Below are positions 3,575 to 14,257 of a stretch of 64,000 nt of DNA, piece by piece. The translations under genes and the position numbers were made by a program. Numbering within the stretch: the stretch's first letter is position 1; the number at the start of each line of letters is the position of its first letter. Source of the stretch: Escherichia coli (GTDB taxonomy: Bacteria > Pseudomonadota > Gammaproteobacteria > Enterobacterales > Enterobacteriaceae); the NCBI RefSeq assembly GCF_013315695.1, contig NZ_CP054353.1; one strand, written 5' to 3'. The notes beneath the pieces were generated by a model. It saw nothing but the letters and a program-made list of their open reading frames with translations, made no database searches and was not told the DNA's origin.

Positions 3575-4969
3575 ATGAAAAAATCGACATTATCTTTAGC
3601 CATCGGTTTATTATTGGCATGTAGTACCGGAATGGCAAAAACACAGCATTTAACGCTGGAACAACGCATGGCATTGCTGGAAGAACGCCTGGAAGCGGCA
3701 GAAATGCGGGCAGCAAAAGCAGAGAGCCAGGTTAAACAGCTGCAGACACAACAAGCCGCTGAGATCCGCGAAATTAAGGCTGCCCAGGGCAATACGCCGG
3801 TAAATGGACAGGCAACGGCGGAATCTGCAAAGAAAAATTCCACCTCACCTAATCTTTTGCTCTCAGGTTATGGCGATTTAAAAATCTACGGCGACGTAGA
3901 ATTTAATATGGATGCGGAAAGTAATCATGGCCTGCTGGCAATGACCAACGCTGATGTGAATAGCGATCCCACTAATGAACAGTGGAATCTCAATGGTCGT
4001 ATTTTGTTAGGTTTTGATGGTATGCGAAAACTGGATAATGGCTATTTCGCCGGGTTCTCCGCACAACCGCTGGGGGATATGCACGGTTCAGTAAATATCG
4101 ATGATGCGGTTTTCTTCTTTGGCAAAGAAAACGACTGGAAGGTCAAAGTAGGCCGTTTTGAAGCCTACGATATGTTCCCGCTGAATCAGGATACCTTTGT
4201 TGAACATTCCGGTAATACTGCGAACGATCTTTATGACGATGGCAGCGGTTATATCTATATGATGAAAGAGGGCCGCGGGCGCTCTAACGCTGGCGGTAAT
4301 TTCCTCGTCAGCAAACAACTTGATAACTGGTATTTTGAATTAAACACGTTACTTGAAGACGGAACATCTTTATATAATGACGGTAATTATCATGGACGCG
4401 ATATGGAGCAGCAGAAAAATGTTGCTTATCTGCGTCCGGTAATTGCCTGGTCGCCGACAGAAGAATTCACCGTTTCCGCAGCGATGGAAGCGAACGTGGT
4501 AAATAATGCTTATGGTTATACCGATAGCAAGGGTAATTTTGTCGATCAGTCCGATCGTACCGGCTATGGTATGAGCATGACCTGGAATGGCCTGAAAACG
4601 GATCCGGAAAATGGCGTCGTGGTTAATCTTAATACCGCCTATTTAGATGCTAATAATGAGAAAGATTTCACTGCCGGGATTAACGCGCTGTGGAAACGTT
4701 TCGAGCTGGGTTATATCTACGCGCACAATAAGATTGATGAATTCAGCGGTGTAGTTTGTGATAACGACTGCTGGATTGATGATGAAGGGACGTACACCAT
4801 TCACACCATTCATGCGTCTTATCAGTTCGCTAATGTGATGGATATGGAGAACTTTAATATTTACCTCGGGACGTATTACTCCATTCTGGATAGCGACGGT
4901 GATAAAAAACACGGTGATGATACTGATGACCGTTACGGCGCACGCGTTCGCTTTAAATACTTCTTCTGA
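3575..4969 (+). CDS. Putative carbohydrate-selective outer-membrane porin (ScrY/OprB/LamB-like) with N-terminal coiled-coil extension; absent from the K-12 frvA-rhaM junction
   Basis: 464-aa ORF; signal peptide MKKSTLSLAIGLLLACSTGMA; heptad-like segment LEQRMALLEERLEAAEMRAAKAESQVKQLQ; Gly/Tyr/Asn/Asp-rich body typical of beta-barrels; C-terminus RFKYFF ends in aromatic Phe; locally AT-rich. Confidence 0.5.
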   Translation: MKKSTLSLAIGLLLACSTGMAKTQHLTLEQRMALLEERLEAAEMRAAKAESQVKQLQTQQAAEIREIKAAQGNTPVNGQATAESAKKNSTSPNLLLSGYGDLKIYGDVEFNMDAESNHGLLAMTNADVNSDPTNEQWNLNGRILLGFDGMRKLDNGYFAGFSAQPLGDMHGSVNIDDAVFFFGKENDWKVKVGRFEAYDMFPLNQDTFVEHSGNTANDLYDDGSGYIYMMKEGRGRSNAGGNFLVSKQLDNWYFELNTLLEDGTSLYNDGNYHGRDMEQQKNVAYLRPVIAWSPTEEFTVSAAMEANVVNNAYGYTDSKGNFVDQSDRTGYGMSMTWNGLKTDPENGVVVNLNTAYLDANNEKDFTAGINALWKRFELGYIYAHNKIDEFSGVVCDNDCWIDDEGTYTIHTIHASYQFANVMDMENFNIYLGTYYSILDSDGDKKHGDDTDDRYGARVRFKYFF

Positions 4970-12948: not shown

Positions 12949-13004
12949 TCATTTGCCGCCTGCTGCAATGAGGCGTTTACGTCGCATATCAGCTTAAAAA
13001 ATGA

Positions 13005-13031
13005 ACCATCGCCAACGGCGGTGGTTTTTTT
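13005..13031 (+). terminator. Rho-independent terminator downstream of sodA
   Basis: Inverted repeat accatcgcc / ggcggtggt followed by a T7 run. Confidence 0.65.
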
Positions 13032-13068
13032 GTGATCAATTTCAAAATAAAAACAATGATCCGATAAA

Positions 13069-13088
13069 AATAAAACAGTGTTTCAATT
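13069..13088 (+). promoter_or_regulatory. KdgR-operator-like palindrome upstream of kdgT
   Basis: aataaaacagtgtttcaatt matches the KdgR half-sites (AAAACA ... TGTTT) as remembered. Confidence 0.5.
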
Positions 13089-13207
13089 GATGTGGTTTTG
13101 ATCACTTTTATTGATCAAATGAATGTCTATCTTCGTTTCCATCAACACTGATGCTCCGTTGAGGAATGACGCATCAGCCCTTAAAAATATGCCGACAGGT
13201 GATGGAA

Positions 13208-14109
13208 ATGCAGATAAAACGCTCGATTGAGAAAATCCCGGGGGGGATGATGCTCGTCCCGCTATTCCTTGGCGCACTGTGCCACACCTTCTCGCCGGAG
13301 GCGGGGAAATATTTTGGATCATTCACCAACGGGATGATTACCGGTACGGTGCCCATTCTGGCGGTGTGGTTTTTTTGCATGGGGGCGTCAATAAAATTAA
13401 GCGCGACGGGAACGGTATTGCGTAAATCCGGTACGCTGGTGGTAACAAAAATTGCCGTCGCGTGGGTGGTTGCGGCAATTGCCTCGCGCATTATTCCGGA
13501 ACATGGTGTTGAAGTTGGATTCTTTGCCGGACTTTCAACGCTGGCGCATTTGTGTTGATGTCATTGGAGTCCGGGCCGCTCATGACGATGATTATTCTGG
13601 GCACTGCCGGGATTGCCTCGTTTGAACCGCATGTTTTCGTCGGCGCAGTATTACCGTTCCTGGTGGGCTTTGCCCTTGGGAACCTTGACCCTGAATTACG
13701 AGAATTTTTCAGCAAAGCGGTGCAGACGCTGATTCCATTCTTTGCCTTCGCGCTGGGCAATACCATTGATTTGACTGTAATTGCCCAGACAGGTTTGCTG
13801 GGGATCCTGTTGGGTGTGGCAGTAATTATCGTGACCGGTATTCCGTTGATTATCGCCGATAAATTGATTGGCGGTGGCGATGGCACTGCCGGAATTGCCG
13901 CTTCCAGTTCCGCAGGGGCCGCGGTAGCGACACCTGTGCTGATTGCAGAAATGGTGCCTGCGTTTAAACCGATGGCTCCGGCAGCAACTTCGCTGGTCGC
14001 GACGGCGGTCATTGTGACTTCGATTCTGGTGCCAATTCTTACCTCTATCTGGTCACGTAAAGTCAAAGCCAGAGCGGCGAAAATCGAAATTTTAGGTACG
14101 GTGAAATAA
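13208..14109 (+). pseudogene. kdgT: 2-keto-3-deoxygluconate permease gene kdgT, disrupted by an internal deletion with frameshift
   Basis: Track splits it into 13166..13558 and 13552..14109 in different frames; first part begins [13 protein letters not shown], second resumes at [12 protein letters not shown]; the span encodes about 300 codons against 327 aa for K-12 KdgT as I remember it. Confidence 0.7.
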
Positions 14110-14257
14110 ACCTGCTTCCTTAATCCCCACAGCCGGATGAACTAACGTTCGTCCGGTTTGCTATTGAGCTCCTGCCTGGATACATACCGCGAAAACAGCA
14201 CGCCTGACATAAAATAAATATGGTCTAATGGGGAAATTTCTCGTGGAGAGGGAACAG

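Follow-up and report, generated by a model that had tools for sequence, protein, structure and literature searches.

Does the kdgT gene on this Escherichia coli chromosome still encode a transporter, and if it does not, what broke it, how often has that happened and what would the loss cost the cell? These questions are raised by the 64-kb stretch of DNA analysed here (the window), in which KdgT is spread over two open reading frames. The surrounding gene order, rhaT, sodA, kdgT, yiiM, cpxA, cpxR, is the standard E. coli chromosomal neighbourhood, and the run sodA-kdgT-yiiM-cpxA places the frames at the position at which the KdgT family orthologue is expected. The broken gene is kdgT, as identified by the TIGR00793 equivalog model, by Pfam family PF03812 and by the conserved sodA-kdgT-yiiM order.

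A first-pass annotation of the same DNA had described a KdgT frame that stops at 13558 and resumes from 13552 in another frame, leaving about 300 codons against 327 in the intact gene. Both ORFs are seen in translation, and the homologous codons number 113 + 187 = 300 of 327. The first ORF starts at ATG 13208 and its 113 codons are identical to KdgT; the second, in a different frame, runs from GTG 13552 to the TAA ending at 14109 and reproduces KdgT residues 143-327 without change (Table 1). Only two ORF starts are possible for this C-terminal remnant, GTG 13552 (185 aa) or ATG 13558, the native Met145 (183 aa). Both pieces match the KdgT family profiles significantly. In PF03812 the N-terminal piece covers profile positions 1-109 (E = 4.5e-34) and the C-terminal piece positions 137-305 (E = 2.8e-61), and in TIGR00793 they cover positions 1-113 (E = 1e-65, 222.4 bits) and 144-314 (E = 2.2e-94, 316.6 bits), respectively. 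The curated equivalog cut-off of TIGR00793 is 453.8 bits, which the intact allele of strain MS 21-1 clears with 615 bits and below which both window fragments fall, so that no single product scores above it. Nor is there an uninterrupted ORF of about 327 codons, the frame being broken by an 82-bp deletion, the resulting frameshift and a stop at 13556-13558. Judged by its reading frames and profile scores, the locus is the remnant of a KdgT family member and would encode no functional one.

Table 1. Features of the sodA-kdgT interval and of the kdgT locus, in window coordinates.
Feature	Position	Strand	Description and basis
Terminator-like hairpin and T-run after sodA	13003..13027	+	11-pair stem with 6 GC pairs, followed by TTTTGTGATC; consensus scan only
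KdgR-type operator palindrome AATAAAACAGTGTTTCAAT	13069..13087		1 mismatch to consensus AATRAAAYRNYRTTTYATT
N-terminal kdgT remnant	13208..13558	+	Native codons 1-113 (13208-13546), then out-of-frame His-Leu-Cys and TGA 13556-13558; product 116 aa
Remaining Chi site GCTGGTGG inside kdgT	13435..13442	+	104 bp upstream of the junction
Deletion scar, hybrid repeat copy GCTGGCGC	13540..13547	+	Alignment to intact alleles
C-terminal kdgT remnant	13546..14109	+	Shifted frame, codons 141-327, stop TAA 14107-14109
TGATG stop/start overlap	13556..13560	+	New TGA overlaps the ATG of native Met145; read from the sequence

The missing segment, which the annotation had put at roughly 80 bp, not a multiple of three, around 13540..13560, is exactly 82 bp long. 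Alignment against the MS 21-1 and K-12 alleles shows the loss of CDS nucleotides 339-420, from the last base of codon 113 to the end of codon 140, with the junction at window 13545/13546; because the dinucleotide GC is shared by both ends there is a 2-bp ambiguity, up to 13547/13548, giving three equivalent alignments. Against the nearest intact allele, that of MS 21-1 (L002), the 82-bp gap is the sole difference in a global alignment across window positions 12950-14250. Against K-12 the same gap is accompanied by 21 substitutions, a single one of them altering the protein (G31E). The alignment to K-12 kdgT, which the annotation had itself proposed as a check, defines the deletion exactly and brings out flanking direct repeats, and it yields no full-length in-frame kdgT.

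These repeats point to how the segment may have been lost. Intact alleles carry the imperfect 8-bp direct repeats GCTGGCGC and GCTGGGGC, which match at 7/8 positions and are spaced exactly 82 bp. The left end point in intact alleles reads GCTGGC|GC and the right GCTGGG|GC, and the window retains one hybrid copy; repeats are thus present at both end points, their spacing equals the deletion length and one copy is kept, as in short-direct-repeat deletions. No other 8-mer pair in kdgT at an offset of 82 matches at 7/8 positions or better. Direct repeats spaced by the deletion length are the configuration expected from slipped misalignment, and on the sequence at its ends the deletion most likely came from slipped misalignment between these two imperfect 8-bp repeats. 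The repeat is weak, at 7/8 matches and with exact homology limited to 2 bp where the crossover falls, and about 180 equally good repeat pairs occur in kdgT at offsets of 20-300 bp. The deletion site is therefore not special, and the repeat explains where a deletion could occur, not why it occurred there. A DNA hairpin bringing the repeats together was considered as an aid to misalignment and rejected, as the deleted region contains no stabilising hairpin and folds no better than shuffled sequence (z = -0.59).

The first eight deleted bases form a Chi site, GCTGGTGG, in all intact alleles examined (L002 3597-3604), and this site is lost with the deletion. The adjacency of Chi to the left end point is recorded here as an observation, from which a part of Chi and RecBCD in the deletion does not follow. 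Each of the seven intact alleles examined has retained the Chi site and the two repeats. As separate observations, intact kdgT has two Chi sites about 160 bp apart, the deletion beginning exactly at the second, and the window as a whole contains 14 Chi sites on the plus strand and 6 on the minus strand.

A single 82-bp deletion arose once, in the recent ancestor of the clone; in the mechanism we propose, GCTGGCGC misaligned with GCTGGGGC, exactly 82 bp apart, leaving one hybrid copy. Codons 113-140 are removed and the frame is shifted, as a result of which translation ends three codons later. Taking all the evidence together, we are highly confident that kdgT is here a true pseudogene made by one repeat-bounded 82-bp deletion of a single clonal origin, with transport presumably lost and regulation probably intact.

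How widely the lesion is distributed bears on its age. The gene is near-universal in the species, 5,425 of 5,426 complete genomes giving a match and 5,415 covering at least 80% of it. A probe across the junction, which intact alleles can cover only to 72%, is fully covered in just one of the 5,426 complete RefSeq genomes, where PGAP annotates a frameshifted pseudogene. Apart from the deletion, the remnants are unchanged from the intact sister allele of MS 21-1, which, together with the presence of the junction in 1/5,426 genomes, indicates that the lesion is recent and limited to a minor clone. The idea that it is private to one strain was rejected by an exact-protein look-up, in which the 116-aa product, with its junction-specific tail ending LAHLC, is recorded on 237 contigs (NCBI, JGI, Logan and ENA). 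The lesion marks one clonal lineage, and provides a clean and easily typed marker for it, as a 40-mer across the junction identifies the clone.

One set of sequences runs counter to a strictly clonal history and was not predicted by it: ten metagenome contigs (L008-L017) bear the junction on other SNP haplotypes. The same truncated product with the K-12-type G31 is found on 13 contigs, all of them metagenome or Logan assemblies and representing several SNP haplotypes. The base at 13563, 17 bp from the junction, is informative here. It is A in 12/12 deletion-bearing contigs and in the intact sister MS 21-1, and G in 6/6 intact alleles of other lineages; the protein sequence on which the look-up was based does not reach this base, so that A was not selected for by the search. 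In every case the junction is linked to window-lineage sequence, and repeated independent origin is consequently not supported. This indicates that the deletion has one origin, followed either by mosaic formation during assembly or by recombination.

Some of these contigs have the allele pattern of mosaics. The isolate that contig L008 matches best is E423 (99.2%). There are 80 differences between the two, in 79 of which L008 has the window allele, and K-12-type alleles stand at 13299 and 14076; within 9.7 kb L008 switches 24 times between window-type and E423-type alleles, the junction lying in a window-type block at 13418-13998. It is a two-parent mosaic, with the pattern produced when an assembly merges two co-occurring strains. 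At least three or four separate window-type patches are needed to explain L010, and L017 is misassembled after 13629. A phage-type integrase adjoins cpxP at L008 9735-10351, at the place where the window has fieF.

Genuine spread of the dead allele, by short-patch homologous recombination in the gut from one origin into other E. coli backgrounds, is an alternative suggested by a further contig. L009 (ERR1711650) follows a C311/M24FEP-type haplotype at 220/222 informative sites and passes without a break through the deletion and the adjacent 13563A, the background alleles resuming at 13299 and at 13608 (A). That only the deletion and its neighbouring base depart from the background suggests short-patch spread, and L009 may be a real short-patch recombinant; if the window-type strain were a minor component of the L009 sample, the intact path is the one that an assembler should have retained. 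Against such spread, all the contigs concerned are metagenome assemblies, a kind of assembly that routinely merges strains occurring together; L008 and L010 are mosaics with multiple switches and L017 is misassembled, and no isolate bearing the junction on another background was found. We consider recombinational spread unlikely as a general account of these contigs, and slightly more doubtful still the specific proposition that this dead kdgT allele, of single origin, has spread in human guts to unrelated E. coli backgrounds through short-patch recombination. If true, it would hint that loss of KDG (2-keto-3-deoxygluconate) uptake is favoured in some gut settings, and a genuine occurrence of the allele on other genetic backgrounds in gut metagenomes would be the point of wider interest in this locus. 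Contigs L008-L017 also serve as a caution on reading strain-level haplotypes from metagenome assemblies. Strains of the C311/M24FEP type (L018, L020, L021 and L022, each from 6927) carry a copy of IS621 just past yiiM.

The same contigs first suggested that the deletion might be a hotspot, recurring independently across E. coli lineages through the GCTGG repeats and the boundary Chi site. The occurrence of the junction, and of the truncated product with G31, on 13 contigs of several haplotypes would be in keeping with this, as would the conservation of repeats and Chi in every intact allele examined. A recurrent event would not, however, bring with it the window-lineage A at 13563, which every deletion contig has while its own background lineage has G. 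Nor is the allele pattern of L008 that of an independent event, with its many switches and its window-type alleles at nearly every difference from E423. The other-haplotype contigs are all metagenomic, the G31 form of the truncated protein being recorded from Logan and ENA alone, the junction is rare among complete genomes, and the roughly 180 comparable repeat pairs in kdgT give this pair no distinction. The recurrent-hotspot idea, raised by the G31 truncated product, was rejected after the haplotype tables were drawn up, and we regard it as very improbable. A single deletion in the ancestor of one clone remains our reading.

An assembly or sequencing error in a genome whose kdgT is in fact intact would be a simpler explanation, and finds some encouragement in the fact that only one complete RefSeq genome has the same junction. 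The kdgT region of E. coli MSB1_4I is 100% identical to the window over 7.3 kb including the junction, and PGAP independently marks the gene there as 'frameshifted'. The window and MSB1_4I are nevertheless different isolates, told apart over 58.6 kb by three SNPs and by an ISEcp1 unit present in MSB1_4I only, so that the common junction stands in two distinct assemblies. The junction also occurs in two gut-metagenome scaffolds (L006 and L007), which show one private SNP apiece over 8.35 kb, and database entries for the 116-aa product exist for E. coli UMEA 3304-1, for UMEA 3190-1 and as STF39575.1, besides its record on the 237 contigs. Furthermore, an 82-bp loss bounded by direct repeats is untypical of short-read or long-read error. 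The identical junction in independent assemblies answers the concern over an assembly artefact, which is barely credible: the deletion is real, on the basis of concordant independent assemblies.

Some further differences in gene content were seen in the course of this comparison. In MSB1_4I, of all complete genomes the one closest to the window, menA is interrupted by a 5.3-kb ISEcp1 transposition unit (L005 26039-31358), a 6-bp overlap marking the target site; its cargo comprises the ISEcp1 transposase, an MFS transporter, an ABC ATPase, a frameshifted FecCD permease and a truncated binding protein. The window is free of this unit and its menA is intact (ORF 32295-33233, minus strand), the point equivalent to the insertion being 32624-32629. 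Mapping of the MSB1_4I annotation onto the window places a carbohydrate porin between rhaM and frvA (about 3575-4969) and two hypothetical proteins between rraA and zapB (about 30234-31657); none of the three is known to belong to the corresponding region of K-12.

Upstream of the broken gene the control region appears undamaged. The terminator-like hairpin after sodA (Table 1) separates that gene from the kdgT control region, and by the criteria of our scan no sigma-70 promoter was found in the intergenic region. The KdgR-type operator is centred on G13078 and extends to a 21-nt palindrome at 13068-13088, in which 8/10 arm positions are symmetric. It matches 18/19 positions of AATRAAAYRNYRTTTYATT, which we take to be the KdgR box consensus of the Erwinia/Dickeya KdgR literature, and is unique in the 64 kb, where 0.04 such matches are expected by chance. 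On this consensus, kdgT has the upstream box of a KdgR-regulon member. The annotation had held a KdgR-operator-like palindrome (13069..13088) to be preserved, and comparison bears this out: the operator is identical in the intact strain MS 21-1, and the sole departure from K-12 is at 13079, where the window has T and K-12 has C and where the consensus is degenerate (Y). With promoter region and operator untouched, the kdgT locus is probably still transcribed and still regulated. A K-12 kdgR mutant has raised levels of kdgT mRNA, and a similar box at the kdgT promoter is bound by the related regulator PlaR (PMC6958661).

Three other features of this interval were noted. The sequence TGTGATCAATTTCAAA at 13031-13046, just past the sodA terminator, resembles by eye a CRP site (TGTGA-N6-TCACA, with 4/5 matches in the right half). 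Between the KdgR box and the kdgT start, at 13097-13119, lies a perfect 8-nt inverted repeat, TTTGATCA and TGATCAAA, the two arms 7 nt apart; the window haplotype alone has it in perfect form, K-12 having T at 13116. One deletion-bearing metagenome contig, L014, has a C to A change inside the KdgR box at the equivalent of 13076, which is either a real variant or an error.

What such a locus could still make is limited. By hydropathy, spans lie at about residues 10-28, 42-66, 73-97 and 100-121 before the break, the last of them in part, and at least six more lie beyond it. The 116-aa product would keep about 3.5 of roughly 10 hydrophobic spans and, on that count, should be unable to form a transporter. 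A ten-helix fold with a central crossover, of the NhaA/BASS type, has been proposed for the KdgT family (bioRxiv 10.1101/2024.06.26.600818), and sequence search detected no solved structure on which the deleted residues could be mapped. With about 3.5 of about 10 spans left to be made, and both fragments below the equivalog cut-off, loss of KdgT-mediated 2-keto-3-deoxygluconate import would be the natural consequence.

A split transporter, in which translation re-initiates at ATG 13558 within the TGATG overlap and the 116-aa and 183-aa fragments assemble and still work, is hardly tenable: stop and start do overlap exactly, the ATG is that of native Met145 and the 183-aa ORF continues unbroken as far as the native stop, but residues 114-144, among them the DMTNGG segment that follows hydrophobic span four, are absent from both fragments, each of which scores below the equivalog cut-off, no Shine-Dalgarno-like sequence was seen by eye upstream of the ATG, and the overlap, which a frameshift can create by chance, is such a chance by-product.

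The metabolic defect predicted from loss of KdgT is a narrow one. Transcription of kdgT is repressed by KdgR, and a cell obtains its KDG either through import by KdgT or by internal production (PMC6958661; PMC4784465). At the DNA level kdgT matches one place in the MSB1_4I record, which contains no second copy. KDG produced intracellularly from hexuronates needs no KdgT, and the expected defect is for this reason limited to external KDG and related compounds. In our proposal the 116-aa product, with only its first 3.5 or so hydrophobic spans, would yield no transporter, and uptake of exogenous KDG would be lost. The likely phenotype is no uptake of exogenous KDG and of related keto-deoxy-uronates or pectin-breakdown products; KDG catabolism from glucuronate or galacturonate should be unaffected and growth on hexuronates normal. 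Growth on uronate intermediates, which the annotation had named among its checks, is thus uninformative as a test of kdgT loss, since intracellular KDG is independent of KdgT.

The kdgT locus described here is an ordinary lineage-specific pseudogene, already flagged as such in the public NCBI annotation (PGAP). With more than 99% of complete E. coli genomes retaining kdgT, the loss seen here is unusual though unsurprising, and the case has little importance beyond strain description, adding a further instance of gene decay through deletion between short repeats.

Among known systems the closest is KdgT of E. coli K-12 (b3909, NP_418345.2), a 2-dehydro-3-deoxy-D-gluconate:H+ symporter (TC 2.A.10) encoded at the same locus between sodA and yiiM. 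It belongs to the same Pfam and TIGR00793 family, differs from the 300 codons of the window by a single amino acid, G31E, and has a KdgR-type operator at the equivalent upstream position. Unlike K-12 kdgT, the window allele has lost CDS nucleotides 339-420 and is frameshifted, which makes a full-length 327-aa product impossible. An identical allele is JMX41_RS25030 of MSB1_4I (NZ_LR898874.1), annotated by PGAP as 'kdgT, frameshifted', MSB1_4I being another isolate of the same clone that differs by its 5.3-kb ISEcp1 unit in menA and its 3 SNPs over 58.6 kb. Many other short KdgT fragments, from S. flexneri, S. boydii and E. coli annotations, appear in protein clusters; their different lengths suggest other lesions, though some may be contig-end cut-offs, and in at least one complete genome, that of E. 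coli H105, kdgT is without its first third. As to mechanism, deletions between short direct repeats were reportedly mapped in classical work on E. coli lacI and ascribed to slipped-strand misalignment or short-homology illegitimate recombination. The window deletion resembles these in that its length equals the repeat spacing, one hybrid copy is retained and nothing else is changed. It departs from them in the imperfection of its repeat, with 2 bp of exact homology at the crossover, and in the Chi site that abuts its left end point.
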